This document shows, in pieces, positions 1,742-20,113 of a stretch of DNA of 64,000 nucleotides (positions are counted from its first letter, which is position 1; every line of letters begins with the position of its first letter). Source of the stretch: Bacteroidota bacterium (GTDB taxonomy: Bacteria; Bacteroidota; Bacteroidia; Bacteroidales; FEN-979); NCBI GenBank assembly GCA_026391795.1, contig JAPLDI010000049.1, positions 98,594 through 162,593 of the forward strand, read 5' to 3'. The notes below the pieces were generated by a model. The model searched no databases, was not told the DNA's origin, and saw only the letters and a program-made list of their open reading frames with translations. The position numbers were made by a program, and so were the translations under genes.

Positions 1742-2820
1742 ACTTCTTTGGCGTAAAATTTGAGGGTTGTCGGGGCCTCCGGTTTGCCAAGATCCTGGCC
1801 GTCAGCACCCCTGAATTTCATCTCCGGATCGTAAGGAATACCCATCTTATCAAGCAGGGGCTCTGCCGGGACTTGGTGAACCTGTAAGCCAAGATCCCAG
1901 GGATTGTATCCAAGAACAAGTCCTGCCAGTTCTTCATAAGTCAGGACAGGAATTCCCTGGTTATTTTCCCCATAGGTCTTTCCCTCCATCTCGCTGATGG
2001 CATATTGCCACCGGTCGAGAAACATAGGGCATCCCGGGCAGTTTGTTAGGATCATATCGGGTTTGTAAGGTTCCATGGAATCGAATTTTTTCTTCGAGCA
2101 GGAGATGGAAAAACCACGGTTGGCCTGCACAAGATACTGCCGGAATCCGAACCCGCAGCAATGCCTTCGTTCAGGGTAATCGATCACCTCACCGCCCCAG
2201 TCTTCGATCATTCCGACAAGAACATAAGGATATTCCGCCCCGCCGATTCCTTTGCTTGGGAACATCTTTGAATAGTGACAACCAATATGTTCAACCACCC
2301 TCAATGGCTTCCCGGTATCCTTGTTCACGAGGCTGTATTTACTCTTTTCCGCAATTTCCTTACGGAATTTAAAAATAATATCGGAGGCGTGGGACACATT
2401 TGCAGGCTTTTTGAATTCTCTCCCCGTGGCTTTGCGCAGGAATTGCCTCGTTTTTTCTTCCAGTTCAGGAAAGTGATGCCATGTTTCAAGCACTTCAGAA
2501 TAGAGCCCGAAGGAGGTGATGCAGGAGGTTACCAGATTTTCGTATCCTGCTTCGGTCATCAGTGCGAACTGTCGCGCCACCATCGTCATGGAAGTCTCAA
2601 AAGGAATGATATCGGTGTGGTATCCGATCCCGGAACAGGTCGTGTGGGAAGGATTTTCAAAAAGGTCCTTCTTAAGCTCGTATTGCAGGATCCGAAGGAA
2701 AGTTTTTTCAGAGCCGGGAAAGAAGTTCTGCCTGACGCAGCTTCTCACATAAAAAAAATGATCCTCCGCGATCTCCTTCTGGTATTCCTTCCAGATATTT
2801 TGTTTCCCTTCAATCTTCAT
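1738..2820 (-). CDS. HdrB-like protein with CCG cysteine-rich domains
   Basis: 360 aa with the motifs HCCGFGF and NCPGCP, typical of CCG domains. It overlaps both neighbours, consistent with an operon. Confidence 0.8.
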   Translation of the reverse strand: MKIEGKQNIWKEYQKEIAEDHFFYVRSCVRQNFFPGSEKTFLRILQYELKKDLFENPSHTTCSGIGYHTDIIPFETSMTMVARQFALMTEAGYENLVTSCITSFGLYSEVLETWHHFPELEEKTRQFLRKATGREFKKPANVSHASDIIFKFRKEIAEKSKYSLVNKDTGKPLRVVEHIGCHYSKMFPSKGIGGAEYPYVLVGMIEDWGGEVIDYPERRHCCGFGFRQYLVQANRGFSISCSKKKFDSMEPYKPDMILTNCPGCPMFLDRWQYAISEMEGKTYGENNQGIPVLTYEELAGLVLGYNPWDLGLQVHQVPAEPLLDKMGIPYDPEMKFRGADGQDLGKPEAPTTLKFYAKEV

Positions 2821-3529
2821 TTTTTCGGGTATGATCTCCTGAATTTTCAGTATAGATAAACTTCATATAGTCGTCATTTTTCCCATCGTTCATCTCCATT
2901 CCCATCTCTGCTGCTTTTTTTCTGGAAAATTCTTCAATCTTCTCCATCCTGGAGAGTCCTCCAGTAACTTCAAAGATCCTCCGGATCTCGCCCAGTGCTT
3001 CCTCCGGTATCTTACGGAGAATCCCGCCGCCGGTACCTTTGTAGTTGGCCCCGAGCCGGTTCATAACAGCCTCCATGTTCTTATGTTCCCATTCCCATAC
3101 CGGTCCCTGTTCTGGGTGCATGTCTGGAAGGATCTCAGAAGGGTAGAGGCAATACCCATATTCAAGGATCCATTTGCCGATCGTTCTTTTGATGGCCAGC
3201 TGCTGGCGTCCTTTTTCAGATTCAGTAAAATATCCAAGTTCCTGCGAGAGTGAACGCAAGGCCTGGATCAGCAACCCCGGGGCATTTCCCCTCGGACAAC
3301 GTGTAACGCACGACATGCACTCCCCGCAGTACCAAATGGTATTGCTTTTTAACAACTCCTCAATCTGTGATTGATCCCTGGTCTGGAGGATGTCAAGAAT
3401 TCTTCGGGGCTGGTAATCGTAAAATTCGGCGGCAGGGCAGATTGCGGTACAGGTACCACAATTCAGGCAGGCTTTCAAACCTTCCCTGAACCTGACATCT
3501 TCGAATAATTTATCGTAAAGATCGGACAT
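2810..3529 (-). CDS. HdrC-like 4Fe-4S dicluster protein
   Basis: 239 aa with CLNCGTCTAICP and CGECMSCVTRCP. It is the first gene of the cluster. Confidence 0.8.
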   Translation of the reverse strand: MSDLYDKLFEDVRFREGLKACLNCGTCTAICPAAEFYDYQPRRILDILQTRDQSQIEELLKSNTIWYCGECMSCVTRCPRGNAPGLLIQALRSLSQELGYFTESEKGRQQLAIKRTIGKWILEYGYCLYPSEILPDMHPEQGPVWEWEHKNMEAVMNRLGANYKGTGGGILRKIPEEALGEIRRIFEVTGGLSRMEKIEEFSRKKAAEMGMEMNDGKNDDYMKFIYTENSGDHTRKNED

Positions 3530-5508: not shown

Positions 5509-8500
5509 TTAATCCAGGATTACTTTCTTAACCGTTGTTGACTGATCGGACATGATACGGAAAAAATAGACTCCCTTAGCGAGACCTGAAAGGTTTAGCT
5601 TCTTTTCAAGGTTTCCGGTTTTAGCAGAAAAATGGTCGGAAAAGAGAGTTTGTCCCTGCAGGTTGACGACAGACAGATCGACGCTGGAAGAAGGATTTGC
5701 AAAAAAGATGTTAACAAAACCCGTGGTCGGGTTCGGGTAGATCCTGATCTCCTCATATTTGCTTTCCTTGTCCGAAACCCCGGTTGGTCCAGAGATAGAG
5801 ATATTATCGAGAAAAATGTTGTTTCCTCGACGGTTGTAAGATTCGAACAGGATCTTGACATTCTTCATCCCGGCCCAGGGGGAGATGTCCACCTGGTAGC
5901 AGCTCGTTCCATAAGCAGAACCGCACCAGTCGTAAGCGGATTGTGGAAAGAAGGAGGTCGACATTTTTTCATGCGTGGCGAAGACATTTGGTGTGCCATC
6001 AGGGCCGGCAGCAAGAATCCTTGTCCAGGTCGTTCCGCAGTCGCCAGAGATCTTCACGATCAGCGAATCCTTTACGGTGGCCTGTTGAGCATAAGCATGC
6101 TCAAAAGTTAACGCCAGTGAGCTGTAAGAACTGAAGTTCAGTGGCGGACTTACCAGCTGATCCCGGTTGGGCTTGGTGTAGCTGAACAGGTTGATCCAGG
6201 CAGCAAGGTGTCCGGGACTCGTTCCCGCAATGGTTATTGTATCCCAGGTTTTATCGTTGTCGGAATTAATGACGGTCCAGTGCTGATTGTTGAAACCATT
6301 CTCAAATCCCTCAGCAAATGGCAGCATGTAGCCTCCATAAATGATATAATCCAGTTTTGTCTGGGAATTGCTCCCTGTAGCGTTTGATGCAGTTAATCTG
6401 ACCGTATAATATCCCGGAACATTAAACTGAACAACAGGATTCTGGCTGCTTGCATCCGTTCCCTGGACGAAGGTCAGTGTAGCGGGTGAAAATTCCCAGC
6501 TCCAGGAAACAGGACAGTTGTCACTCTCATCCAGGAAATGAACAAGGTCACCTTCACATAAGACGGTTTTATCAGACGTGAAAGAGACGGCAGGTGCCTG
6601 TGCTGGATTTACGGTGATGTAGTTTGTTTTTGTAATTGAATCCGACCCGTTTCCGTTCCAGATCTTCATCTTTACAGAATAGGTCCCGGGAGTATTGTAC
6701 ACGATACCTGAGGGATTCTTTACTGCCGACGTGGATGGAGTCCCTCCTGTAAATGTCCATTGCCAGCTTGTTGGTGTACCGCTGGAAAGGTCTGTGAAAT
6801 TCACGCTGCAACCTGCCGGCATGGTTGTTTTGCTGGCTGTGAAATCAGCTATGGGGGCTGCATGATACATATCTGAACCCCAGAGTCCTCTTCCATAGGT
6901 ACATCCCCTGATCACATCACTGGAAACGCTGTCGTTATCATAATAGATTTCTACTTCCGTAACCTTTGCATTCGCTGGAAGCCCTTCGCTGAAAGGAACC
7001 CAGCCCGTCATTGATGAGTTTTTGTAGTAAACGCCTGCATCTGTACTCACATAAAGTCCTTCCAGGTCGTTTTTATAATAGGCGATTGAATTCATATGCA
7101 CTGCAGGAAGGTTGAGGCTGATGTTGGTCCAGGAAACACCTTTGTTAACCGATTTATAAACAGAATTTCCAGCGGTGATATAAACAGTGTTTGGATCCGT
7201 GGGGTGTGCCGTAATGTCAGTAGGAGTTGAAGCCACCGGCAGATAGGGAGTAAGGTCAACCCAGGTGGGATTGACATCCATGCAGTTGTCGGATCTGAAA
7301 AAACGCGTGTCTGATCGCGAAGCATAGAGAATGTTTGTATTGGCAGGTGAATTTTCAAGAGCAACAAGGTCGCTGCCGTTACTGCCGCCAAGGTTGTCAG
7401 AAATCTTTTGCCAGGTAGGATTACCTACCCTGATATACGTACTTCTCCAGATATTCTTGTATCCGATGAACATGGTATTCGCGTCAGTCGCATTAAAGAT
7501 GAACGGTGTCACCCATCCACCGCTTTCATTGATTCCGTTGATGCCATTTCCGGCTATATGCCTTTCAGCGGCATTGTTGTATCTGCGGTAGATGTCCCCG
7601 TAATATAATGTATAGTAGCTGTAACCGTCATTCTGGAAGTCAATGGCACATTCCATACCATCACCTCCGCCAGTTGCCACCCAATCAGCGGGAGTAAGGG
7701 TATAGGTTCCGTTATCCTGGAAGCCGTTGATTACATGGTTTTTCGATAACTGGGCCTGGCCGAGTTTATAGATCTGTCCGATGGTAACACCGGTAATCCT
7801 GTAATCCCAGGTAGTCCCCCCGTCAGAAGTGGAAAATACACCGCCGTCATTTCCTGCAAACAGATGTCCGTTGACCGGTGAATACCCGAGATAATGACAA
7901 TCTGCATGAACGGAGGGTACGCTGCATCCACCGTACCAGTGCGAATTGATGGTCCAGGTTAATCCGCCGTCCGTTGATTTCCATACATTCACACCACCAA
8001 CATAGATCGTATTTGCTGAAGTCGGGTCGGCTGCCAGTGCAAGGTCATACCAGCCTTGTCCGCCGGTACCGCTTCCGTCGCAACTCCAGTCCATGATATT
8101 CGGTGAGGTGGACCGCATACTGAAAGAGAGTCCGGAATCGGTGGAGCGGTAAACGCCACCGTACCCATTATCACCGGCTGCATAAAGAATATAAACATAA
8201 GCAGGGTTTGCAGCAGAAACAGCGATAGTTGAACGTTGTCCGCTGCCTACACCGGAGGTTATCAGGTTAAATGTCACACCGTTATCGCTTGAACGGAAAA
8301 ACTGTGAACCACCTGCAGCATAAATGATGGAATGATTTCCCGGCTTAAACTCAATACTTTTGAAGTTTCCTGATTCCGTCAGTGTCCATGTATTTCCGGC
8401 GTCAACGGTCCGGTAAACTCCTCCGCTGGTGGCTGCAAGCATGATGGAGGAATTGGTGGGATCCTGGATCATGGACCCGACGGTTTTGTCACCCATTCCG

Positions 8501-9177
8501 GTTTTCGACGCAGACCAGCTCAACCCGCCGTTGATACTTTTATATACGCCCAGACCAGTGGCATCACCTGCGTCGCGGTCGCCGGTACCGATAAAGATCC
8601 TGTTAGGATTCGAATAATCAACGATGATAGCGGAAACTCCCAGGGTAGGCATCGTGTCGGTATGGGTCACCCAGGTCAGGCCACCATCGGATGTCTGCCA
8701 CATTCCACCCGAAGGAGAGCCGATATAGAATTTATTAGGGTCGGTGGGATGATATCCAACGGTATTAACCCGTCCCAATCCTTCGTATCCGGCAGGCCCG
8801 GGCAGGGGTATGGTTGCAGGTCCCAACGATATCCAGTTTCCGTTTGTGGACGTATAGCTTTTTAAAAAGTCCTCATATGACTTCTCAGCCAGCTCAGGTG
8901 CCGGGCGGTCGCCATTGGGTAAAACACGGCTCTGCATCATGTATTCCCAACGTTTGAATACTTTCCAACCGCATCCTTTCGTGATCGGCCGGTTCTGCCA
9001 GTAAATGTTGAAGGCTCTTTGTACCTTAAAGAAGTTTACGTTCGGATCCTGCATCATCTGAACCCAATAGGGGTAATTGGCAGTATCCTTCGAAACATCA
9101 TTTGACGTGTTTTGTTGAGCGCTGGCGGAAATAACCCGCAGGCAAAGAAAGACCGAAATGATAATGAACTTTTTCAT
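5509..9177 (-). CDS. Large secreted BNR/Asp-box (sortilin-like) + PKD + MAM-like protein with a T9SS C-terminal sorting domain
   Basis: Start set at MKKFIIISVF (ATG at 9177), which gives a signal peptide. There are at least 8 SxDxGxTW-type Asp-boxes (e.g. TSDGGLTWV, KSTDGGLTWT) and two PKD-like modules. The C-terminus IRIYPNPTTGFVNI...KGVYFFRI...KKVILD is T9SS-CTD-like. Confidence 0.85.
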   Translation of the reverse strand: MKKFIIISVFLCLRVISASAQQNTSNDVSKDTANYPYWVQMMQDPNVNFFKVQRAFNIYWQNRPITKGCGWKVFKRWEYMMQSRVLPNGDRPAPELAEKSYEDFLKSYTSTNGNWISLGPATIPLPGPAGYEGLGRVNTVGYHPTDPNKFYIGSPSGGMWQTSDGGLTWVTHTDTMPTLGVSAIIVDYSNPNRIFIGTGDRDAGDATGLGVYKSINGGLSWSASKTGMGDKTVGSMIQDPTNSSIMLAATSGGVYRTVDAGNTWTLTESGNFKSIEFKPGNHSIIYAAGGSQFFRSSDNGVTFNLITSGVGSGQRSTIAVSAANPAYVYILYAAGDNGYGGVYRSTDSGLSFSMRSTSPNIMDWSCDGSGTGGQGWYDLALAADPTSANTIYVGGVNVWKSTDGGLTWTINSHWYGGCSVPSVHADCHYLGYSPVNGHLFAGNDGGVFSTSDGGTTWDYRITGVTIGQIYKLGQAQLSKNHVINGFQDNGTYTLTPADWVATGGGDGMECAIDFQNDGYSYYTLYYGDIYRRYNNAAERHIAGNGINGINESGGWVTPFIFNATDANTMFIGYKNIWRSTYIRVGNPTWQKISDNLGGSNGSDLVALENSPANTNILYASRSDTRFFRSDNCMDVNPTWVDLTPYLPVASTPTDITAHPTDPNTVYITAGNSVYKSVNKGVSWTNISLNLPAVHMNSIAYYKNDLEGLYVSTDAGVYYKNSSMTGWVPFSEGLPANAKVTEVEIYYDNDSVSSDVIRGCTYGRGLWGSDMYHAAPIADFTASKTTMPAGCSVNFTDLSSGTPTSWQWTFTGGTPSTSAVKNPSGIVYNTPGTYSVKMKIWNGNGSDSITKTNYITVNPAQAPAVSFTSDKTVLCEGDLVHFLDESDNCPVSWSWEFSPATLTFVQGTDASSQNPVVQFNVPGYYTVRLTASNATGSNSQTKLDYIIYGGYMLPFAEGFENGFNNQHWTVINSDNDKTWDTITIAGTSPGHLAAWINLFSYTKPNRDQLVSPPLNFSSYSSLALTFEHAYAQQATVKDSLIVKISGDCGTTWTRILAAGPDGTPNVFATHEKMSTSFFPQSAYDWCGSAYGTSCYQVDISPWAGMKNVKILFESYNRRGNNIFLDNISISGPTGVSDKESKYEEIRIYPNPTTGFVNIFFANPSSSVDLSVVNLQGQTLFSDHFSAKTGNLEKKLNLSGLAKGVYFFRIMSDQSTTVKKVILD

Positions 9178-9252
9178 AGTGGAATCAGGTTGGTGTTTTC
9201 GACAGACAAATGTACCCTTTTTTTTCTTTTTGCCGGCCCCCAATTCAACCTC

Positions 9253-10116
9253 TCAGGAAATAGTTTTTTCCAGGATCAACATCAGGAGGACCAGGAGCAG
9301 GAAGGTGTTCATAAGAATGAATAAAAGTTTATACCGCGGAATCTTGACGAAATAGAACTGATAGAAGAACAGCGAAAGGATGATCAGGTTCATTCCCGGG
9401 ATCATCAATTTTGAAAATAATAACATCCAGAACCCTGAGAGGACAAGCAGCAGGGAAGTTCCCGTTGCCCCGATCATCCATGCAAAAATGATATTCCGGA
9501 ATTGAAATTCATTGAAAACATCCGTCATCACCGGAAATCCTGCCAAACGGTACTCATTCCCGTACTTGATCATAAGAAGCCAGAAATGAGGGATTTGCCA
9601 CATGAAGAGGAAAAATGCCAGCAGGAAAACCGGGTGATCAGACAGCGATCCTCCGGCAGCTGACCATCCCATGTATACAGGAATCACACCCGACAGGGCT
9701 CCCGGAACAACAGCAAAAGCCGTCTTCTTTTTCAACCATGTGTAAAAACCATTGTACCACAAGATATTCAATAACCCCAGAACCACACATGTCCAAAAGG
9801 CGCCGGATGCAAGAAACGTCAAACCTGAAAGAAGCAGAAGGAAGGCAAAGAAAGAAGCATTTTTTGAACTGATTTTGCCGGAAGGAACGGGGCGGTGTTT
9901 TGTCCTTTCCATCTTTGCATCCTGTTCTTTTTCCTGCACCTGATTAAATGCAGATGCTCCGGAGGCCAGCAAAAAAATTCCCGCCAGGGGTACTATGGCT
10001 TTTGGGGATACTGTTCCGGATGCCGCACACCAGGCCGCAAAAGCAGATAAGGTTACAGAGAGCGAGACCCGAATCCGGATCAATTCCGGGAAGATCCGGG
10101 ATGCGAACGAAAGCAA
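9253..10116 (-). CDS. cyoE: Protoheme IX farnesyltransferase (heme O synthase)
   Basis: Polytopic UbiA-family protein with NQVQEKEQDAKMERTKHRPVPSG. It is the last gene of the cox cluster. Confidence 0.85.
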   Translation of the reverse strand: MLSFASRIFPELIRIRVSLSVTLSAFAAWCAASGTVSPKAIVPLAGIFLLASGASAFNQVQEKEQDAKMERTKHRPVPSGKISSKNASFFAFLLLLSGLTFLASGAFWTCVVLGLLNILWYNGFYTWLKKKTAFAVVPGALSGVIPVYMGWSAAGGSLSDHPVFLLAFFLFMWQIPHFWLLMIKYGNEYRLAGFPVMTDVFNEFQFRNIIFAWMIGATGTSLLLVLSGFWMLLFSKLMIPGMNLIILSLFFYQFYFVKIPRYKLLFILMNTFLLLVLLMLILEKTIS

Positions 10117-10117
10117 G

Positions 10118-11026
10118 TTATTTTAGGGTTTTCAAGTATTCAATTATTTTCTTGACCTCATCCTCTTTTACAGTACCCTTGTATGGTTTCATCACTCCTT
10201 TTGAGAAACCTGCAACGATATCCTTGTCGGGATCAAAAATGGAAGTTGTGATGTATTCATCATCTACCTTTACCTTTCGCTCAACTCCATTCGTGGTAAC
10301 GTTTTCAGTTTTTCCGTAAAGACCTTTAAAGCTGACACTGACCAGTCGCGAACCGTCGAGGGAATGGCAGCCGATGCATGCATTCTTCTTCAGGATCATG
10401 AGTCCTTCAGGCTCTGCAGAAGAAACTTTCAATGCCTTTAGCCAGAGGGAAAACTGCATCGGTGTGACAACTCTGACTTTCGTTCCCATATAGGAATGCC
10501 GGACGCCGCAGTAAGCTGTACAAAAGATCTCATAATCACCGATCTGCTGCGGGGTAAACCACATATAATTGTTTTTTCCCGGAACCACATCTTCCTTAAC
10601 CCGGAATGCCGGAATTGAGAATCCATGAATAACATCTTCGGAATGAAGGTTGAGTTTGACAGGGTTGTTCAGCGGCAGAACCAGCTCGTTTGCAACCTTT
10701 GAACCTGGATATTCAAAACTCCACTGCCACATCCTGCCAATCACTTTTACCTGCATGGCATCTTTTGGCACCCAGATCATCGGTTGAAAAGCAGCATATC
10801 CGTAATAAAACAGAAACAGAACAATGATGATCGGGATCGTGATCCAGGTGATCTCAAGTGCCGTGCTGTCCTTTACCTGTACCGCTTTTGGATGCCTTTT
10901 GCGGTTGTACCTGACCACAAAAAAGAGCATTGTCGCCGTAATGACCAGTAAAAAGAAAAAACTGATTCCGAAAAGTAGTTTAAAAACCCAATCTACTCCT
11001 TCAACAAAATTTGATGCACCGTTCAT
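10118..11026 (-). CDS. coxB: Cytochrome c oxidase subunit II with fused C-terminal cytochrome c domain (caa3-type)
   Basis: CuA site CTAYCGVRHSYM. C-terminal CIGCHS heme c motif. Two N-terminal TM helices. Confidence 0.9.
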   Translation of the reverse strand: MNGASNFVEGVDWVFKLLFGISFFFLLVITATMLFFVVRYNRKRHPKAVQVKDSTALEITWITIPIIIVLFLFYYGYAAFQPMIWVPKDAMQVKVIGRMWQWSFEYPGSKVANELVLPLNNPVKLNLHSEDVIHGFSIPAFRVKEDVVPGKNNYMWFTPQQIGDYEIFCTAYCGVRHSYMGTKVRVVTPMQFSLWLKALKVSSAEPEGLMILKKNACIGCHSLDGSRLVSVSFKGLYGKTENVTTNGVERKVKVDDEYITTSIFDPDKDIVAGFSKGVMKPYKGTVKEDEVKKIIEYLKTLK

Positions 11027-11513: not shown

Positions 11514-12119
11514 TTATGTTACCAGATACAGGAGCGGAAAGAGAAATATCCAGATCAGGTCAACCAGGTGCCAGTAAAGTCCACCATTCTCGAGCAGTAC
11601 ATAATGTTCATCGGTGATCAGTCCCATTCTGACTTTGACGAGGGCAACCACCAGGATAACCGCTCCGATGACTAGGTGAAGCATGTGTAACCCCGTCATA
11701 AAGAAATAGAGACTGAAGAAAAGAATGTAACCATGCCTGAGTGTCTGCATCAGTTCTGTCCCCGGATACAACGTGATGGATATTTTGTGCCCCCATTCAA
11801 AATATTTATCCACCAGGAAAATGACAGCACAAAGGAGGGTTATGCAGAGAAGAATTGTGGCCATCCGCTTATCTTTTTTCTGAACCGCCGAGATCGACAT
11901 GGCGACCGTCATACTGCTGATTAGGAGAACCACTGTATTCAAAGCCCCAATGAATGTGTTTAGCTGAAGGGAGGCCTGGTGAAAGTCATCCGGGTATCGA
12001 TGCCTCATAACGGCATAAACAAGGAATAACCCACCGAACAGCAAGATTTCGGTAAAAATAAATACCCACATTCCCAGTTTTGCGCCCACATCGTCACGTG
12101 GCATTTCTATATGATCCAT
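11514..12119 (-). CDS. coxC: Cytochrome c oxidase subunit III
   Basis: 201 aa polytopic protein. FFMTGLHMLHLVIG and GLYWHLVDLIWIFLFPLLY are typical of the subunit III C-terminus. Confidence 0.85.
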   Translation of the reverse strand: MDHIEMPRDDVGAKLGMWVFIFTEILLFGGLFLVYAVMRHRYPDDFHQASLQLNTFIGALNTVVLLISSMTVAMSISAVQKKDKRMATILLCITLLCAVIFLVDKYFEWGHKISITLYPGTELMQTLRHGYILFFSLYFFMTGLHMLHLVIGAVILVVALVKVRMGLITDEHYVLLENGGLYWHLVDLIWIFLFPLLYLVT

Positions 12120-12180: not shown

Positions 12181-13785
12181 TTAATCATAGTCATACGGCT
12201 TATCCGGTACAGCAGGTGGAGTGGCGAAATTTTCCATTGAAGGGGGCGAAGGCAGCTGCCATTCAAGGGTTTTTCCACCCCAGGGGTTGTCACCCGCTTT
12301 GGCTCCGTTTTTCCTAAATAGATTTATAACCATGATAATGAATCCGATTCCAAGAATATATCCTCCGATGGTCGAAATCTGCTGTGCCCAGGTAAACTGG
12401 GGGAGATAATCAAAATACCTTCTGGGCATTCCTTCAAGGCCAATGATGAATTGCGGGAAATAGAGAAGGTTGAACCCGATAAAAAGAAAACCCCAGGCAA
12501 TATTGGCAACCCTGAAATTGTAAAGTCGTCCGAACATCTTGGGATACCAGTAATGAACCGCACCGAGGAAAGCAAACCCGACACCTCCGAATATGATGTA
12601 ATGGAAATGGGCAACAATAAAAGAAGTATCATGAACCTGGATATCAGTTGCAAGTGCCCCCTGGACAAGTCCGGTCAATCCCCCGATGCAGAACAAAAAG
12701 ATAAAAGCGATTGCGAAGAGCAGAGGAGGTTTCAGGTCGATAGAGCCTTTGTACATGGTGGCTACCCAGTTGAAAACCTTAATAGCGCTGGGAACTGCCA
12801 CAAGGAAGGTGAGAAGTGAAAATGTCCAGATGGCTTCCTTGCTCATGCCAGAGGTGAACATATGGTGTCCCCAAACAAAATACCCGACCCCAGCTATGGC
12901 GAGGCTGGAAATTGCAATCGCTTTGTAGCCGTAAATCTGTTTCTGGCAGAAGGTAGGGATGATCTCGGTGATTACACCCATGGCTGGCAGGATCATTATG
13001 TACACTGCCGGATGTGAATAGATCCAGAACAGGTGCTGGTAAAGAACGGGATCGCCGCCAAGCGCCGGATCAAAGAATCCGATATGGAACAACCTTTCGG
13101 CGATAATCATCAATAAGGTGATACCGATAACCGGTGTTGCAAGGATCTGGATCCAGGCAGTGGCATAAATTGCCCAGGGTAATAAAGGCATTTTGAAGAA
13201 ACTCATTCCCGGCGCACGAAGGCGGTGAATCGTAACGATGAAATTGATGCCGGTCAGAATAGAGGAAAACCCAAGGATGAAAGCCCCGCTCACCGCTGCG
13301 ATCACATTGGTCTGCGTCTGCGTGCTGTAAGGCGCGTAAAACGTCCAGCCGGTATCGGGCGGGCCGTTGCCTGTAAACTGCGATACGACCACGACCGCTG
13401 CACCCAGAATATAAAGGTACCAGGCGAAAAGGTTGAGTCGTGGAAATGCGACATCATTGGCGCCTATCATAATGGGCATGACGAAGTTGCCGAAAACGAC
13501 AGTCAGTCCGGGGATCACGATCAGGAAGATCATGATCAGTCCGTGAAGCGTAAAGATCGCGTTGTAGGTTTGAGGTCCGTAGAACTGTTGCCCGGGCTTA
13601 AAAAGCTCGGTTCGCAACGTTTCCCCGAGGATGCCCCCAACGATAAAGAAAACCAGGATAGACCATAGGTAGAGGAGTCCAATCCTCTTGTGATCAGTAG
13701 TGGTAAGCCAGGCCTTAAGTCCTTTCCGCTTCCCGGTATCGGTCAGATAACTCGGTTCTTCATGAAGATCTGTGTTTCCAGTCAT
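12181..13785 (-). CDS. coxA: Cytochrome c oxidase subunit I
   Basis: 534 aa with 12 or more TM helices. Contains the heme-copper oxidase motifs WFFGHPEVY-like (LFWIYSHPAVYIMILP) and HHMFTSG. Confidence 0.95.
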   Translation of the reverse strand: MTGNTDLHEEPSYLTDTGKRKGLKAWLTTTDHKRIGLLYLWSILVFFIVGGILGETLRTELFKPGQQFYGPQTYNAIFTLHGLIMIFLIVIPGLTVVFGNFVMPIMIGANDVAFPRLNLFAWYLYILGAAVVVVSQFTGNGPPDTGWTFYAPYSTQTQTNVIAAVSGAFILGFSSILTGINFIVTIHRLRAPGMSFFKMPLLPWAIYATAWIQILATPVIGITLLMIIAERLFHIGFFDPALGGDPVLYQHLFWIYSHPAVYIMILPAMGVITEIIPTFCQKQIYGYKAIAISSLAIAGVGYFVWGHHMFTSGMSKEAIWTFSLLTFLVAVPSAIKVFNWVATMYKGSIDLKPPLLFAIAFIFLFCIGGLTGLVQGALATDIQVHDTSFIVAHFHYIIFGGVGFAFLGAVHYWYPKMFGRLYNFRVANIAWGFLFIGFNLLYFPQFIIGLEGMPRRYFDYLPQFTWAQQISTIGGYILGIGFIIMVINLFRKNGAKAGDNPWGGKTLEWQLPSPPSMENFATPPAVPDKPYDYD

Positions 13786-14649: not shown

Positions 14650-15057
14650 TCATGTTGCAGATTTCTCTTCCCTGTAAATTCCTGCGATCATCAGGGCACC
14701 CCCCATCAGAGCAGTATCTTTCAGCAACTCGATCAATGCCAATGTCGAAACTTTCGTATGCACCTGGAGAATGGTTACTTCGGTCGGGTCAAAAAGTGAC
14801 GGAACATGGATCGTAAGGATAAAAATGAAAAGAAGGAGTGCCAGCAAAAGACAGGATAGCTGAATGTATTTTTTTGCAATGATGGAGATGCAGGCTGCAA
14901 TCAATGCAAGTCCTGTGATAATAATAGTGTATCCCCCTCCTGGAATGAAGGTGCTGACCATTCCTGTATAATAACTTGTCATGAGAAAATGGTTCAGTCC
15001 AAGGATTCCAAATGGCAGGGCAAACAAGATTCTTCCTATGGTTGTCAGGTGTTTCAT
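14650..15057 (-). CDS. DoxX-like membrane protein
   Basis: Start moved to MKHLTTIGRILFALPFGILGLNHF (ATG at 15057). Four hydrophobic helices. Confidence 0.6.
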   Translation of the reverse strand: MKHLTTIGRILFALPFGILGLNHFLMTSYYTGMVSTFIPGGGYTIIITGLALIAACISIIAKKYIQLSCLLLALLLFIFILTIHVPSLFDPTEVTILQVHTKVSTLALIELLKDTALMGGALMIAGIYREEKSAT

Positions 15058-15068
15058 AGTTGATTTTA

Positions 15069-15977
15069 TTAATTTATTTGTTTTAATTTTATTAAGGAGA
15101 CGAGGATATAAAAGATGAATCCCCAGACTGTGATCAATGAAAACGAAAATGTGAGAATAAGCCATAGAGGGGCCTTTGAGCGTACCGACCACATGGCGCG
15201 GGCATCGGTCAGGCTTTTTAAGATAACCGGTTTGCCAATGGCCAGTGATGCCTTTGCCTCATTTGCGTTCAGGTTCCCTGTTTCATCCTTAACCCTTGCA
15301 GCGAGGTCCAGGATCCCGAATTCGCCACCGGGAAGATCGGCCGGGAAGTCGAAAAATGCAAATCCGGCGGCATTAGTGCTCTTCGGTTCTCCTGTTTTCA
15401 GCCAGCCAAAATACCTTTTAACATTGAGTTGTATTTCGATCCCTTTTGCAGGGATATCCTTTTTGTCTTTCAGGATCTCAGTGCAGAGAACATAGAGTTT
15501 TTGTTGCCTGTAATTGCAGTAGATATGGAGTCTCAGATTCTTGTAACCCATTCCTGCTCTGACCAGCGGTGCAGGCTGCATATAACCGGAATTAAAGCTC
15601 CTGAGATAGGAGATCACCTGCCAGCGTTCTTCTACCGAAAGGATATTTCCAAACTGGGGCATGGGAGTTTTGCCGGTAGTGACCTTGAAAAATATTTCCC
15701 CGTCGGCTTGCTTTTGAAATTTGGCAGAAGCAGGATCTCCCGGGGGGGGGGCGATTTTGGCCCAATTCTGTTTACCCGGATCTCCATGGCACGACTTGCA
15801 GTTTTTCTGAAACAGGCTCTCACCGCTTTTTACCGTCTCAACGGTAAATATGAAAGGAGCCACCTTCTCTTTTGCTTCCTCAGGGATTACCCATGCAGTC
15901 GGGGGCGACTGTGCGAAAACACTGATCCTCAGCAAAAGTAAAATGAAAGCCAAAAGGAATACGTATTTCTTCGTCAT
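15069..15977 (-). CDS. Membrane-anchored monoheme cytochrome c (ActE-like role?)
   Basis: Has a signal peptide, a single CKSCHG heme motif with a downstream Met (TPMPQF), an extra ~150-aa domain and a C-terminal TM helix. Contains a C10/G10 tract at 15742-15751. Confidence 0.75.
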   Translation of the reverse strand: MTKKYVFLLAFILLLLRISVFAQSPPTAWVIPEEAKEKVAPFIFTVETVKSGESLFQKNCKSCHGDPGKQNWAKIAPPPGDPASAKFQKQADGEIFFKVTTGKTPMPQFGNILSVEERWQVISYLRSFNSGYMQPAPLVRAGMGYKNLRLHIYCNYRQQKLYVLCTEILKDKKDIPAKGIEIQLNVKRYFGWLKTGEPKSTNAAGFAFFDFPADLPGGEFGILDLAARVKDETGNLNANEAKASLAIGKPVILKSLTDARAMWSVRSKAPLWLILTFSFSLITVWGFIFYILVSLIKLKQIN

Positions 15978-16030
15978 ATTATTCTATGTTTTCAATCACA
16001 TTCAATTCTGCATCTCTGATACGACATACT

Positions 16031-17359
16031 TCATTCCTTCTCCTCCACCAGCCCTTTTTCCACTGCTGTTTCACGGATCGGAACCACCGGGAAAAATTTG
16101 GATAACATCGTGATCAGGATAAGTACCATAAAGAAGGATGACAGGGTAATGGCAATCTCAATCAGTGTTGGTGTATATACTTTAAAATTGTAAGGTACGT
16201 ATTGAATGGGGAGGTATGGGTGTTCCTGCACCGGGACCACAATGATGTACCGCTTGAACCAGGAGCCGATAAAAACAGCCAGGGCAATGATCAGCAGAGG
16301 AAGAGGGGCCCGCATCTTCCTGAACAGGATCAGGATGATGGGAAGAAGGAGTCCGCCGACCTGGACAGCCCAGAACATGACCGAAAACCGTCCCGAAAAA
16401 AGATCATGAAGGTTGATGGCTTCGGCGGTTTTTAATTTATATACGGGGACCAGAAATTCGTTGATGTTAAAATAGAGGTATACCAGCATTACCAAGACGA
16501 GAAGTTTTCCCATGTTGTTGAAATGCCGTTCGGTGATATACTCGTGAAGTTTGTAATTTTTCTGGAAGAAAAACATTGCGATGATCACGGCTGAGGCGCC
16601 GGAGACAAAGGCCCCAGTAACAAAATAGGGACCGAAGAGAGTGCTGTCCCAACCGGCACGTGTTGTCATGGCGAAGAGCCAGGAGGTAACCGTATGAATG
16701 GCCAGGGCGCAGGGGATGATTAGGGTCAGAAGAATCCTGACACTCCGTTGGATGATGCGGTTCTTCTCCGGTGTGTCTGTCCAGTTGAGGGATAGCACCG
16801 CATACGATTTTTTTACCCATCCGGGGAGATGATCCGTCTTTTTATGGATCCATGCGATATCGGAGATCATGGTCACGAACAGCAAAAGTGCACTCAGGAT
16901 AAAATACGTAGTCACGACAGTTACATCCCACAGAATGGGCGACTGAAATCTTCCGTAAATAAACACATTGGCCAGCCTGTCGGGACGTCCCATATCCATG
17001 ACGATAACCAATCCTGCCAGCGCAGCGAAAGCAACCGCAATGATCTCTGCGATCCGGGTAATGGGAGTGATCCATTTGATCCCGATCAGCCCGAGAACTC
17101 CGCTTATCAGCATTCCGATCAGGCTCGTTGCAACGAAGAATACAAAGTTGGAAAGGTACATGCCCCAGGAAACATAGTCGCGGATCCCGGCTACTCCCAG
17201 GCCAAACCTGAGCTGAAGAGTATATGCGTAAAGGCAGATGCAGAGACCTATGACCAGGAACCCCATCCATATTTTAAATCCACGCGTGATCCGTATATGG
17301 GAGGTGAGATCTTCAGTTATTTTTTTAAGTGCAGCGTTGTTTTCATCCATGGTTTTCAT
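16031..17359 (-). CDS. NrfD/PsrC-family quinone-interacting membrane protein
   Basis: 442 aa with about 10 TM helices. It overlaps the FeS gene by 4 nt, which is the classical FeS + NrfD pairing. Confidence 0.85.
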   Translation of the reverse strand: MKTMDENNAALKKITEDLTSHIRITRGFKIWMGFLVIGLCICLYAYTLQLRFGLGVAGIRDYVSWGMYLSNFVFFVATSLIGMLISGVLGLIGIKWITPITRIAEIIAVAFAALAGLVIVMDMGRPDRLANVFIYGRFQSPILWDVTVVTTYFILSALLLFVTMISDIAWIHKKTDHLPGWVKKSYAVLSLNWTDTPEKNRIIQRSVRILLTLIIPCALAIHTVTSWLFAMTTRAGWDSTLFGPYFVTGAFVSGASAVIIAMFFFQKNYKLHEYITERHFNNMGKLLVLVMLVYLYFNINEFLVPVYKLKTAEAINLHDLFSGRFSVMFWAVQVGGLLLPIILILFRKMRAPLPLLIIALAVFIGSWFKRYIIVVPVQEHPYLPIQYVPYNFKVYTPTLIEIAITLSSFFMVLILITMLSKFFPVVPIRETAVEKGLVEEKE

Positions 17360-18360
17360 GCTTTTTTCGGTTCTGCATCCTTTGAGGGTTCAAACGGGAA
17401 TAACCTGTTCTTAGGTGGAAGATAATAAACCCTGGGTTTTGTTCCCAGTTCAGGAAGAAGCTGGTAGGCTCCGTTTTCACTGAGCAGGGTACTGAGCCTG
17501 ACGGTCTCTTTTGTTGTTCCATTTGTCACGGAATCTTCGTTTTCATCTCCGAAATAATAAACGCCGTTAGGACAGGCGGAGACGCAATAGGGCAGTTTCC
17601 CTTCACGCAGCCTGTCGGAGCTCATCAGGCATTTTGTAATGGTTCCGATGCGTTGAGGAATGTTGAGCTCAACATTATAGGGAAGATCTTTGTCGTGTTC
17701 ATCATACTTCGGTTTGCTCCAGTTCAGCATTCTGGCGGAATAGGGACAGGCTGCAATGCAGAATCGGCAACCGATGCAGCGTGTATTATCAATTAATACG
17801 GGGCCATCCGGTCGTTTAAAGGTGGCATCAACAGGGCATACGGCTACGCAGGGAGGATTGTCGCAATGCTGGCATGGCTTTGGCATATGGAATGCGGGTG
17901 TATGCGGATTCTCCTGCATCTGCAACGTATTCAGATGAAACTGGTCATGGCGGAGATGATGGGCAGACTGGCAGGCATTAATACACTGACGTGCATTCCG
18001 GCACTTTGAAAGGTCGATCACCCAGATCCAGCGACGCCCCGGGATGCCCTCCCGTCCTCTCAGGACCATCTGCTCTTCCGGAGATTTCTCCAGGGCTTTC
18101 ATCTCAAGAGAATCCACTTCAACAAGTTTGTTGTCCTGTGTCAGCAAAACGCTCTTCTTTCCTCCTTTCTTCTTCTCCTTTTCAAAGAGGTCTCCTGAAA
18201 AAAGGGCAGCAGTTCCAGCAGCAGCTCCAGCTCCTATCAAACCGAGGTTGCGTATGAACTTTCGCCGGGAGGCCTGTTTTGAATTATTTGTTTCAGGATG
18301 GGTAAGTTTGTGCTGATTATCCTGATTATTTTCATTCTTTGGAGTTTCTTCCATAGTCAT
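17356..18360 (-). CDS. Tat-exported 4Fe-4S cluster protein (PsrB/NrfC/DsrO/ActB-C-terminal-like)
   Basis: Twin-arginine signal SRRKFIRNLGLIGAGAAAG. Cys clusters CQHCDNPPCVAVCP, CIGCRFCIAACP and CVSACP. Confidence 0.85.
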   Translation of the reverse strand: MTMEETPKNENNQDNQHKLTHPETNNSKQASRRKFIRNLGLIGAGAAAGTAALFSGDLFEKEKKKGGKKSVLLTQDNKLVEVDSLEMKALEKSPEEQMVLRGREGIPGRRWIWVIDLSKCRNARQCINACQSAHHLRHDQFHLNTLQMQENPHTPAFHMPKPCQHCDNPPCVAVCPVDATFKRPDGPVLIDNTRCIGCRFCIAACPYSARMLNWSKPKYDEHDKDLPYNVELNIPQRIGTITKCLMSSDRLREGKLPYCVSACPNGVYYFGDENEDSVTNGTTKETVRLSTLLSENGAYQLLPELGTKPRVYYLPPKNRLFPFEPSKDAEPKKA

Positions 18361-18384: not shown

Positions 18385-18392
18385 CAAATATA
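18385..18392 (-). promoter_or_regulatory. -7 box TATATTTG for the respiratory operon
   Basis: The reverse strand reads TATATTTG, 25 nt upstream of the ATG at 18360. It is embedded in the palindrome atatttgcaaatat. Confidence 0.45.
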
Positions 18393-18433: not shown

Positions 18434-18466
18434 AAAAAAAAGCTGTCTCAAAAGGAGACAGCTTTT
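18434..18466 (-). terminator. Rho-independent terminator (9-bp perfect stem, 5-nt loop, T-run on the minus strand)
   Basis: agctgtctc-aaaag-gagacagct, flanked by A7 and T3-4. On the minus strand the stem is followed by T9. Lies downstream of the gene at 18509-20113. Confidence 0.7.
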
Positions 18467-18508: not shown

Positions 18509-20113
18509 TTACTGGATAACGACCTTTTTATTGATTGTGCCGTTTTCCAATGTGGCTTTAAGGTTGTAGATGCCTGTGGTCAAACCGGAGGTATTTACAT
18601 TCACGGTTTTTGCATTCACAGTTTCGCTGATCACAAGCTGTCCGGCTGCATTGTAAACCTGGATTTCCTTAATGTTATTGACAGACTGAATTGTCATCAC
18701 ATCTTTTACAGGATTCGGGAATACAGAAACAACGTTTGCATTGAGATTGTTAACGCCAACACCGCCAACATGGATGTAACCGGTTTTGGTTAAGGTGTTT
18801 GATCCGTTTGCATTTGTCACGATCAGTTTTACATCGTGGTCTCCTGGAAGATTGTATGTGATCGCAGGCGGAGTCTGTAAAGCTGACGTTGACGGGGTCC
18901 CGTCGGTGAATGTCCAGGCCCAGGAGGTCGGACTTCCGGTTGATTCATTAACAAATGTAGCAGTTCCGCCAAGAGGAAGAAGGGTATCTGGTGTCATGAA
19001 AGCAGCAACGGGTAGTGTCGGGGGAACAAGAACGCCATGGAATCTGAAAATACCGTCTGTTGCATCGGTGTTAAATCCGCCGATCCATCCGGTTGAATCA
19101 TTCAACCATTTGCTGGTGGTTACCTGTGTACCGTTGATCGTTGGTTCGGGGCTCCAAGAAGCACCACCGTCATAGGAAAAAGAAACCCCTAAACGGTCGG
19201 GCTGATTAGTAAAGTCAACACCGCTTGTAACGTAGGTGCCGGTTGTGCCGGGAACAAACTGAATTTCACCAGCAAAGGGAGCACCGGTGTATGTCCTGTT
19301 TGTAAAGGTTGCTCCGCCATCCGAAGTTTTCTGGAGAAGGAGGGTGGTATCTGTTGTAGCCTGATATTTCAGGGCAAGTCCGTTTGTTCCGTCGCTGGTG
19401 GCCGGAAAGGAGTTCTTTGTCGTTGCAAAAGGAGCAGCAACGATCCAGTTGTGACCCTTGTCTGTGGAAGCAAAAATCCTTCCATGGTTTGTGCCAAACC
19501 AGATATTGTCGCCGTTTACACAAACATTTGAAGTGTATCCGTATTCACCAGACAATGGATTCGGGATCTGTGCACCAGGAACAGCAGTCCAGGTAGTTCC
19601 GCCATTGGTTGTTGTATAAATTTCAAATTCGCCATTGATGGGGTCGCCGAGAACGGTTCCGGTATTATCATCCCAGAAATAGATCCAATCCGGGAAAGAA
19701 TTGGCATTGGAAAATGGGGCAGTTGTCTGACGGGTCCAGGTGGTTCCGCCATTAGTTGTTTTATAAACACCGGCGAGGTTGCTGCCGGTTGCCTTATACA
19801 TGGCGGCATATGCCGTGGTTCCGCTGGTTGCGGAAAGCATAGATATCTGGAGTCCGGTTGTTGCGTTAACGATGCCAGCTGTCCATAAGGTTCCGCCATT
19901 GAGGGTCTTACTGAAATCCTGAACACCGTTGGTTCCACCCGTGCCATCATAGGCTGAAGCCCATACGATCTGATTGGAAACAATGGAGATGTTCATTACA
20001 CCTCTGGAAGCGGTTGTAAATCCAAGTCCCTGCTGGATCCATGTCTGTGAAAATAACTGGAAAGACAACAAGGTCAAACAAATAACTGATAGTAATGTTT
20101 TTTTCATGATCAA
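18509..20113 (-). CDS. Secreted BNR/Ycf48-like beta-propeller + PKD protein with T9SS C-terminal domain
   Basis: Signal peptide present. Asp-box-like repeats (TTNGGTTWT, TLNGGTLWT, TSDGGATF), one PKD module, and the C-terminus VFPNPVKDVMTI...GIYNLKA...KKVVIQ. Confidence 0.8.
   Translation of the reverse strand: MIMKKTLLSVICLTLLSFQLFSQTWIQQGLGFTTASRGVMNISIVSNQIVWASAYDGTGGTNGVQDFSKTLNGGTLWTAGIVNATTGLQISMLSATSGTTAYAAMYKATGSNLAGVYKTTNGGTTWTRQTTAPFSNANSFPDWIYFWDDNTGTVLGDPINGEFEIYTTTNGGTTWTAVPGAQIPNPLSGEYGYTSNVCVNGDNIWFGTNHGRIFASTDKGHNWIVAAPFATTKNSFPATSDGTNGLALKYQATTDTTLLLQKTSDGGATFTNRTYTGAPFAGEIQFVPGTTGTYVTSGVDFTNQPDRLGVSFSYDGGASWSPEPTINGTQVTTSKWLNDSTGWIGGFNTDATDGIFRFHGVLVPPTLPVAAFMTPDTLLPLGGTATFVNESTGSPTSWAWTFTDGTPSTSALQTPPAITYNLPGDHDVKLIVTNANGSNTLTKTGYIHVGGVGVNNLNANVVSVFPNPVKDVMTIQSVNNIKEIQVYNAAGQLVISETVNAKTVNVNTSGLTTGIYNLKATLENGTINKKVVIQ

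Follow-up and report, generated by a model that had tools for sequence, protein, structure and literature searches.

A three-gene FeS protein, NrfD and monoheme cytochrome c module upstream of Bacteroidales cytochrome c oxidase genes as a candidate minimal menaquinol:cytochrome c oxidoreductase

Bacteroidales are usually regarded as fermenters or nanaerobes, and cytochrome c oxidase genes in a genome of this order raise the question of what reduces cytochrome c for the oxidase. We analyzed a 64,000-nucleotide stretch of a Bacteroidales genome (assembly GCA_026391795.1, contig JAPLDI010000049.1, positions 98,594 to 162,593; hereafter the window), in which three open reading frames on the minus strand, within 15069–18360, precede a set of oxidase genes; their coordinates agree exactly with those of the original prediction, which was made from the DNA letters alone. 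They encode an iron-sulfur (FeS) protein with a twin-arginine translocation (Tat) signal, a membrane protein of the NrfD family and a membrane-anchored monoheme cytochrome c. The annotations at the source are generic ('NrfD/PsrC family molybdoenzyme membrane anchor subunit', 'cytochrome c'), and an exact look-up of the window NrfD protein returned no record; the window cytochrome is 100% identical to P0121, from a Bacteroidota metagenome-assembled genome. We propose, with a probability of roughly 0.7, that the trio is a minimal menaquinol:cytochrome c oxidoreductase supplying the co-transcribed cytochrome c oxidase. It would most likely replace complex III without a Rieske protein or cytochrome b, and without the ActA, ActB1, ActD and ActF components of alternative complex III (ACIII).

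The oxidase genes themselves define the need for such an enzyme. Seven genes follow the trio on the same strand at spacings of 1–133 nt, encoding a 135-amino-acid (aa) membrane protein, SCO, CoxA, CoxC, a caa3-type subunit IV, CoxB and CyoE. Because CoxB combines a CuA site with a fused cytochrome c domain, the enzyme is a cytochrome c oxidase and not a quinol oxidase, and it needs a cytochrome c donor. A gene-by-gene listing revealed no Rieske/cytochrome b gene and no second NrfD gene in the 64-kb window, and the only CxxCH proteins there are the 302-aa cytochrome of the trio and CoxB. The original prediction had described a 334-aa Tat-exported FeS protein without a molybdopterin domain, a single NrfD-family protein and a 302-aa anchored monoheme cytochrome c with an extra domain, heading a strand-consistent, tightly spaced cox operon whose block holds no Rieske/bc1, ActA, ActD or ActF genes. 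This description is borne out by the gene listing and by the motifs and domain matches given below.

To examine the prevalence of the module, relatives of the window NrfD were searched for in species-representative genomes (one per species), yielding at least 590 matching stretches, and the ten proteins of the window operon were compared by tblastn with the best 80 of these, in loci reaching 10 kb to either side. All named carriers among the best 80 are Bacteroidota, mostly Bacteroidales (including Prolixibacteraceae, Paludibacter, Draconibacterium, Marinilabiliaceae, Rikenellaceae, Marinifilum, and Ancylomarina), and three are named only 'bacterium' (one metagenome-assembled genome, MAG), 'uncultured bacterium' and 'metagenome'. 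A recurring order on one strand was observed, namely FeS, NrfD, cytochrome, (DoxX-like), SCO, CoxA, CoxC, CoxIV, CoxB, and CyoE, with no extra gene inside the trio at any of the 80 loci. The FeS gene adjoins NrfD in 67 of the 74 loci with enough upstream sequence, and the cytochrome gene adjoins it in 77 of 79. Co-occurrence with cytochrome c oxidase genes extends well beyond the window: among the 65 loci with at least 4.5 kb of downstream sequence, in 61 the module immediately precedes a cytochrome c oxidase operon, of the A-type in 59 and of the cbb3 type in two. The cbb3 type occurs in two cultured organisms, Marinifilum flexuosum DSM 21950 and Ancylomarina euxinus, where ccoI, a fused ccoNO, ccoP, ccoG, and ccoH come after the trio. 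Since both A-type and cbb3 operons are involved, the association is with cytochrome c oxidases as a class and not with one operon; this linkage to two oxidase families is the strongest argument for reduced cytochrome c as the product of the module.

The NrfD subunit matches the Pfam NrfD family (PF03916) with 112.8 bits against a cut-off of 25.8 and has about ten hydrophobic segments. A PDB search with this subunit at E ≤ 1e-10 gave matches only to ActC, in four ACIII structures (E from 8e-47 to 3e-40; residues 13–431); up to E 1 it added just a marginal match to ActF (E 0.43), PsrC being absent even at that threshold. When the functional residues of ActC tabulated by Calisto and Pereira (PMC8076601) were mapped through the alignment with 6f0k_C, Ser164, Asp169, Arg395, Glu326, Tyr270, His247, Asp191, Tyr176, Ser180, Arg119, and Glu122 were found to be kept, and three positions were substituted (His139 to Asp122, Asp253 to Leu228, and Glu394 to Lys369 of the window protein). 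D122, S140, D145, K369, and R370 are invariant in 81 of 81 family members, and the remaining mapped positions differ in at most a few of these sequences, position 313 being Asp or Glu. D122, S140, and D145 form a putative quinol-site triad, and R370 is a conserved mid-membrane residue. The spacing of the triad (18 and 5 residues) is that of Asp106/Ser124/Asp129 in Desulfovibrio vulgaris DsrP (PMC8076601), and D122 corresponds to Asp107 of A. fulgidus DsrP, which is strictly conserved where ActC has His (bioRxiv 10.64898/2026.08.25.746951). In the DsrMKJOP structure, menadiol in DsrP lies less than 8 Å from a cluster of DsrO, and the route proposed there for electrons leads from DsrP via DsrO to the hemes of DsrJ (bioRxiv 10.64898/2026.08.25.746951). 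On the NCBIfam DsrP model (cut-off 350 bits), the window protein scores 115.7 bits and its relatives 118–149, compared with 58–63 for genuine ActC; on the QrcD model it scores 46 bits. We also ranked the 150 closest 50%-identity cluster representatives by similarity, using only full-length members (at least 380 aa): the first approximately 38 are nearly all Asp-type, and His-type (ActC-like) proteins become frequent only further down. By these comparisons, the NrfD subunit is placed in the ActC/DsrP branch, nearer the DsrP-like side, and in neither equivalog.

In the FeS subunit, a hydrophobic segment comes after a Tat motif (SRRKF) at residue 31. The Pfam matches of this subunit are of ferredoxin type only (Fer4_11, E 4e-22, 78.6 bits against a cut-off of 26.2), with no molybdopterin domain found by Pfam in the 334-aa protein. 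Among curated models, DsrO scores highest (171.7 bits; cut-off 200), ahead of TtrB, QrcC, and NrfC, and the best PDB matches are PsrB, ArrB, and ActB, the latter over its B2 domain (ActB residues 796–1023 only). Exactly 14 Cys residues are invariant across 69 sequences of the Bacteroidales family. Motifs II (C163-x2-C-x4-C-x3-C175) and III (C195-x2-C-x2-C-x3-C205; CIGCRFCIAAC) are complete, and motifs I (C120-x2-A123-x2-C126-x3-C130) and IV (C244-x2-S247...C259-x3-C263) lack the second Cys. In an alignment of the window and cbb3-linked Marinifilum proteins with five proteins from a sister clade described below, the A and S substitutions are present in both oxidase-linked proteins, and the sister-clade proteins keep canonical four-Cys motifs I and IV (KCDGCGKC... 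and KCDFCPH...). The absence of the two-Cys loss from the sister clade argues that the change is derived and goes with oxidase linkage. With only three Cys each, the motif I and IV sites probably hold higher-potential clusters, either [3Fe-4S] or Ser-ligated; by the motif-to-cluster assignment of NarH/PsrB-type proteins, which we take to apply here, no other cluster would lie as far from the membrane as these two. The loss of two Cys residues fits a retuning for a high-potential acceptor. ACIII has a [3Fe-4S] cluster in a different place: motif III of ActB lacks its second Cys (CIGTRYC), which makes the membrane-proximal cluster a [3Fe-4S], and this cluster is the primary acceptor, with a potential of +140 mV (PMC5928083).

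The third subunit has a single CKSCH heme motif, in a Cytochrome_CBB3/Cytochrom_C domain at residues 48–127 (Pfam). An AlphaFold2 model built from 44 sequences (mean predicted local distance difference test score 84.4) gave a layout of signal peptide (1–22), class I cytochrome c (approximately 33–126), immunoglobulin (Ig)-like beta-sandwich (approximately 146–245), and C-terminal membrane helix (approximately 271–300); no lipobox was found in the 302-aa protein. C60, C63, H64, and M106 are invariant in the family, M106 being the likely axial ligand. Among the Foldseek PDB matches of the cytochrome domain, ActE of Roseiflexus (6lod_E) ranked first and that of Rhodothermus (6f0k_E) fifth, and the beta domain matched Ig-like domains. 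In R. marinus, the caa3 oxidase receives electrons directly from ActE, whose His/Met heme has a potential of +165 mV (PMC5928083).

Natural fusions link these proteins to one another. Many of the NrfD representatives are 600–765 aa long, and a profile of cytochrome residues 140–302 matches the tails of P0245, P0250, P0254, P0263, P0275, and P0317 (E 1e-19 to 1e-28) and, more weakly, that of P0266 (E 3e-5). NrfD is thus fused to one or two Ig-like domains and a helix in seven of the 150 best representatives, and none of the seven fusion proteins contains a heme motif. Other long relatives have weak Big_1 or Big_3_5 matches, and P0265 is an NrfD-FeS fusion. In P0425 (L087:4704–7100), a single 798-aa chain joins NrfD, cytochrome c (CASCH), the beta domain, and a terminal helix, repeating the domain order of the window cytochrome, and an FeS gene immediately precedes the gene for this chain. 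The fusions point to the beta-sandwich and helix as the part that docks on NrfD, and to a single complex of all three proteins.

The sister clade comprises Niastella vici, Flavitalea flava, and MAGs from Cytophagaceae, Planctomycetes, Verrucomicrobia, and Acidobacteria (Terriglobales). Its loci (L085:6693–11964, L086:7046–11884, L088:7016–12941, L089:123–4499, and L090:7105–11886) have the gene order FeS, NrfD, Ig-like anchor, cytochrome c, a 380–476-aa protein, and a small further gene. The NrfD proteins have the D-S-D quinol site and the FeS proteins 16 Cys. The Ig-like protein, with a membrane helix, is 150–197 aa long and matches the C-terminal half of the window cytochrome (E approximately 1e-26), and the cytochrome c, of 128–155 aa, matches its heme domain (E approximately 1e-30). 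Separate encoding of anchor and cytochrome c in this clade indicates that the window cytochrome is a fusion of two ancestral subunits. The 380–476-aa protein has no family match and resembles an outer-membrane beta-barrel; it was considered as a possible ActF and rejected on that appearance and for want of any PDB, Pfam, or NCBIfam match. In L086 and L090, the small further gene encodes an 87–90-aa monoheme cytochrome c with a lipoprotein-like N-terminus. The sister cluster looks like a quinol-to-outer-membrane electron conduit, and in the Bacteroidales clade a quinol-dehydrogenase module seems to have been recruited to oxidases.

Gene content, conservation, synteny with oxidases, homologies, motifs, and fusions are observed; they are consistent with the following mechanism, in which the direction of electron flow, the cluster types, the exit point, and the energy coupling are inferred. 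Menaquinol would be oxidized in the periplasmic pocket of NrfD, its protons being released to the periplasm, and the electrons would enter the Tat-exported FeS subunit via the membrane-proximal [4Fe-4S] cluster of motif III. They would then travel along the cluster wire to the two distal three-Cys sites (motifs I and IV) and reduce the His/Met heme of the anchored cytochrome, docked on NrfD by its beta-sandwich and C-terminal helix; the Ig-like domain may be a stalk that brings the heme domain level with the far end of the FeS subunit. After the heme, the next acceptor would be the cytochrome c domain of CoxB (or CcoP/CcoO), followed by CuA, the heme-copper site, and finally O2. NrfD may also pump protons, most of the putative proton-path residues of ActC being kept.

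Several observations weigh against this reading. Four of the 65 informative loci have no oxidase downstream (L078, L031, L063, and L064). NrfD and the cytochrome occur without an adjacent FeS gene in L031:6314–8577, L061:6425–8740, and L063:4745–7007; the oxidase is likewise absent in L031 and L063, and L061 is too short downstream to count among the 65. NrfD stands alone, without an adjacent FeS or cytochrome gene, in L064:9971–11302. These loci raise the question of whether NrfD and the cytochrome work without an FeS subunit or borrow one from another locus. (In L061, L063, and L064, the NrfD gene diverges from a gene for a 974-aa fusion of a flavin adenine dinucleotide-linked oxidase and an FeS protein.) In L078:4759–12296, from a Marinilabiliaceae MAG, the full trio is followed by a Tat-exported 929-aa NapA-like molybdopterin oxidoreductase and NapG- and NapH-like FeS genes. 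Lone NrfD paralogues, approximately 61% identical, with the quinol-site triad intact and no adjoining FeS or cytochrome partner, follow narH-narJ-narI and two major facilitator superfamily (NarK-like) genes in L072:5450–6772 and L079:10004–11308; the MAGs concerned also carry complete trio-plus-cox loci (L036 and L041, respectively). The sister clade is not oxidase-linked, and L085 and L086 lie beside copper ATPases, a multicopper oxidase, and copper-handling genes, so that the ancestral role may have been electron export and not O2 respiration; no copper context was found at L088–L090. In addition, the trio could be one of several respiratory branches in the genomes that carry it, and the cluster types and electron exit point are deduced from Cys motifs by way of the NarH/PsrB assignment.

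The proposal can be taken further, to a third and structurally minimal class of complex III, built of three subunits without b hemes, a Rieske protein, or a multiheme cytochrome, that would be the sole quinol:cytochrome c oxidoreductase of many Bacteroidales. Electrons would then run along the entire FeS wire and exit via the two retuned three-Cys clusters to a cytochrome positioned by its Ig-like stalk, and a single NrfD would conserve energy. We regard this extended claim as tentative, and rather doubtful in its full form.

Among the alternatives, a role in oxidase biogenesis is unlikely: the trio would be a quinol-driven periplasmic metal (cupric) reductase or thiol reductant for the assembly of SCO/CuA or CuB, and respiratory electrons would not flow through it. 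FeS membrane proteins act as cupric reductases in oxidase assembly, as exemplified by CcoG. The genomic setting also lends itself to this explanation, the trio preceding the DoxX-like protein and the copper chaperone SCO in the window and the copper ATPase CcoI in Marinifilum, with copper ATPases, an HMA chaperone, and a multicopper oxidase beside two of the sister-clade loci. The cbb3 operon of Marinifilum, however, has its own ccoG and no SCO, yet retains the trio, and the copper context is missing from the other three sister loci (L088–L090). Moreover, the ActE-like cytochrome domain has the His/Met ligation typical of electron carriers to oxidases, and a three-subunit NrfD complex with putative proton-path residues exceeds what an assembly reductase needs.

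Descent from a complete actABCDEF cluster by loss of ActA, the B1 domain, ActD, and ActF would make the trio a true reduced ACIII, an origin that we also consider improbable. ActC chains are the only solved NrfD matches at E ≤ 1e-10, ActB2 aligns across the whole FeS domain, ActE is the top structural match of the cytochrome domain, and linkage to oxidase genes is common to ACIII and the module, all of which speaks for this origin. The finer features disagree. The quinol site has Asp for His139 and Leu for Asp253 of ActC, nearly all of the nearest 38 or so full-length NrfD relatives are Asp-type, and the family scores on the DsrP model are twice those of real ActC (116–149 versus 58–63 bits). 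The second Cys is missing from motif III in ActB but from motifs I and IV in the family. Act genes are absent from the sister clade, whose FeS protein is of the 16-Cys form, and ActD, a protein of two membrane helices with a beta-sheet on the cytoplasmic side (PMC5928083), offers no equivalent of the Ig-like anchor. The label 'stripped-down ACIII', used in the original prediction, therefore holds as a functional analogy and is probably wrong as history, given the DsrP-type Asp, an FeS pattern unlike that of ActB, and a sister clade that is not ACIII.

It is also conceivable, with a small probability, that the module works in the other direction, as a Qrc-like cytochrome c:menaquinone reductase, or as a periplasmic quinol dehydrogenase hub with mainly non-oxidase partners. 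The related QrcCD operates in the quinone-reducing direction, the trio of L078 is coupled to a Nap-like molybdoenzyme with NapG/H-like genes, and the beta-barrel-like protein and small lipoprotein cytochrome c of the sister clade suggest electron export. Set against this are the oxidase linkage in 61 of 65 loci, a QrcD model score of just 46 bits, and the lack of any periplasmic dehydrogenase encoded in the operon. With a His/Met monoheme class I cytochrome encoded ahead of a cytochrome c oxidase, electrons would also be expected to run downhill, from quinol towards O2. DsrOP proper, as part of a dissimilatory sulfur-metabolism complex, is very improbable: among the NCBIfam models the FeS subunit matches DsrO best and the NrfD subunit DsrP, but both scores fall under the curated cut-offs (171.7 versus 200 and 115.7 versus 350 bits), the 14 Cys compare with 16 in DsrO with its four [4Fe-4S] clusters (bioRxiv 10.64898/2026.08.25.746951), and no dsrMKJ-like genes are present in the window or the fetched flanks of the 80 loci. 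With these scores below both cut-offs and ActC as the solved NrfD relative, the module does not fall inside a characterized family of unrelated function. PSRLC3-type complexes were also considered and set aside, being Chlorobi molybdoenzyme systems of a composition unrelated to the trio.

The features of the transcription unit are collected in Table 1. A terminator-like hairpin ending the upstream gene and a TAtaTTTG box, which we take to be a Bacteroidetes −7 promoter element (consensus TAnnTTTG), lie upstream of the FeS gene, indicating that this gene opens the unit. A sigma-70 promoter scan of the window was uninformative (16 sites versus 15.9 expected), and tRNA and Rfam scans of the window gave no matches. 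The stop codon of the FeS gene and the start of the NrfD gene overlap by 4 nt (ATGA).

Table 1. Features of the trio and oxidase operon in the window (positions in nucleotides of the window).
Feature	Position	Strand	Basis or remark
Intrinsic-terminator-like hairpin, ends upstream gene	18438..18466	-	12-bp stem then T run (scan and sequence)
TAtaTTTG box	18385..18392	-	25 nt before FeS start codon; TTTG 17 nt further upstream
FeS subunit, 334 aa, Tat-exported, four-cluster type, DsrO/NrfC/ActB2-like	17356..18360	-	motifs, Pfam, alignments
NrfD-family membrane subunit, 10 helices, 442 aa (439 aa from Met4)	16031..17359	-	Pfam, PDB alignment
Membrane-anchored monoheme cytochrome c, 302 aa	15069..15977	-	heme motif, AlphaFold2 model
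Four-helix membrane protein, 135 aa, distantly DoxX/MauE-like (sub-threshold)	14650..15057	-	weak Pfam matches in relatives
SCO1/SenC-family copper chaperone with C-terminal membrane helix	13802..14614	-	
CoxA, heme-copper oxidase subunit I, A2-type	12181..13785	-	YSHPAVY in place of GHPEV; HHMF
CoxC, oxidase subunit III	11514..12119	-	
caa3-type oxidase subunit IV, 94-98 aa	11160..11456	-	
CoxB, oxidase subunit II	10118..11026	-	CuA site (CTAYCGVRHSYM) and fused C-terminal cytochrome c domain (CIGCH)
CyoE/CtaB, heme O synthase	9253..10116	-	

The downstream genes had been predicted as DoxX, SCO, coxA-C-IV-B(c), and cyoE, a set that stands except for the first label. No DoxX match was found for the window 135-aa protein, and among eight family proteins (the window protein and seven relatives), seven match at E 0.0017 to 2.2, below the Pfam cut-off. 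The gene, which starts at approximately 15057 rather than 15192, was found in 43 of the 80 related loci. Throughout the family, the oxidase genes keep the order I-III-IV-II-cyoE. The operon includes cyoE but lacks a gene for heme A synthase, so that this A2-type oxidase may carry heme a or heme o/b and the label 'caa3' is not established; the cox-encoded cytochrome c oxidase of D. vulgaris is of the cc(b/o)o3 type and receives electrons from the monoheme cytochrome c553.

Large proteins are encoded at both borders of the operon (window 5509–9243 and 18509–20113). In L001, from a genome whose NrfD is 75% identical to that of the window, a 1224-aa homologue with Sortilin/PKD domains and a Por secretion tail follows cyoE (L001:17860–21326), and in L083 the upstream flanking protein has PKD and Por_Secre_tail domains. 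Insertions of approximately 1.2–2 kb separate SCO from coxA, or the cytochrome gene from SCO, in the otherwise constant arrangement at L032:8272–10284, L054:6091–8048, and L012:12190–13413. In Marinifilum flexuosum, the trio has a gene for subunit I of cytochrome bd oxidase as a close upstream neighbor, on the opposite strand (L059:6578–8131), and a CydA match lies within the fetched locus L033. Elsewhere in the window, at 725–3529 on the minus strand, three adjacent genes encode HdrA-like (pyridine nucleotide-disulphide oxidoreductase), HdrB-like (CCG domain), and HdrC-like (two 4Fe-4S motifs) proteins, forming a heterodisulfide-reductase-like set in a Bacteroidota genome.

A study of Labilibaculum described cbb3 and cox oxidases in Marinilabiliales/Bacteroidales isolates and is silent on the cytochrome c reductase; the trio is the obvious candidate for reducing cytochrome c in such oxidase-bearing organisms. 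A full-text literature search, the scope of which did not take in the NrfD-family survey of Duarte et al. (2021), found no description of a monoheme, oxidase-linked Bacteroidales module. Presence of such a module would alter how O2 respiration is inferred from Bacteroidales genomes and MAGs of sediments, peat, lakes, and guts. The coupling of quinol chemistry to proton translocation by NrfD-type subunits (ActC, DsrP, PsrC, and QrcD) is unresolved (PMC8076601; PMC5928083; bioRxiv 10.64898/2026.08.25.746951), and a three-subunit complex with one NrfD in cultured strains would be a far simpler test object than ACIII or DsrMKJOP. If the trio does represent a minimal complex III class, it would be the simplest natural system for asking whether ActC/DsrP-type subunits pump protons. 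The clade-specific loss of Cys in two motifs offers a natural case of redox tuning in a four-cluster wire.

Comparison with known systems places the trio as follows. With a PF03916 protein above the cut-off next to a Tat-exported Fer4_11 protein, it belongs among the NrfD/four-cluster modules of the NrfCD/PsrBC superfamily, and the likeness to 'DsrOP or NrfCD plus cytochrome c' drawn in the original prediction is an accurate one. NrfCD-type pairs without a molybdopterin subunit that donate to periplasmic cytochromes have been stated for Melioribacter and MBNT15. In these and in NrfBCD, as in the trio, an NrfD and FeS pair oxidizes quinol and delivers electrons to periplasmic c-type cytochromes; their clusters, however, encode multiheme cytochromes and have been assigned to nitrite or metal reduction, whereas the trio has a monoheme cytochrome and is linked to heme-copper oxidases.

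DsrOP shares with the module a Tat-exported four-cluster FeS protein, a 10-helix NrfD protein bearing the DsrP-type Asp in the quinol site, and the delivery of electrons to a c-type cytochrome. The module differs in having a monoheme His/Met cytochrome with an Ig-like anchor instead of the triheme DsrJ, and no DsrMK genes; the sub-cut-off scores, the 14 Cys, and the absence of dsrMKJ place it outside DsrOP. The 'DsrOhPh-tetrahaem' complex of cable bacteria, of unknown function, has been proposed as a 'candidate alternative complex III'; it uses a tetrahaem cytochrome where the module uses a monoheme one, and the genomic tie to O2 reductases sets the module apart from both DsrOP and DsrOhPh. 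Compared with the module, the sister clade has its anchor separate or fused to NrfD, canonical four-Cys FeS motifs, a beta-barrel-like gene, and no adjoining oxidase.

ACIII, known from Rhodothermus, Flavobacterium, Roseiflexus, and Chloroflexus, shares the proposed task of passing electrons from menaquinol through cytochrome c to a caa3/aa3 oxidase, with its genes likewise upstream of the oxidase, and R. marinus resembles the window in having an A2-type oxidase with subunit II fused to cytochrome c. ActC and the module NrfD agree in fold and length and in Ser164/Asp169, with His139/Asp253 replaced. In contrast, ACIII has a pentaheme ActA, ActD, and ActF, none of which is encoded in the module, and an ActB of approximately 1000 aa with a molybdopterin-like B1 domain, compared with a 334-aa FeS protein that is B2-like only. 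Its [3Fe-4S] cluster is at the membrane-proximal motif III, which is complete in the module, where the three-Cys sites are I and IV, and its cytochrome is anchored by lipid rather than by a C-terminal helix and Ig-like domain. The absence of ActA, B1, ActD, and ActF, the position of the 3Fe site, and the change from His to Asp place the module outside ACIII. The best reading of these likenesses and differences is that the trio is probably a relative of the NrfCD/DsrOP/ACIII kind and not a reduced ACIII.

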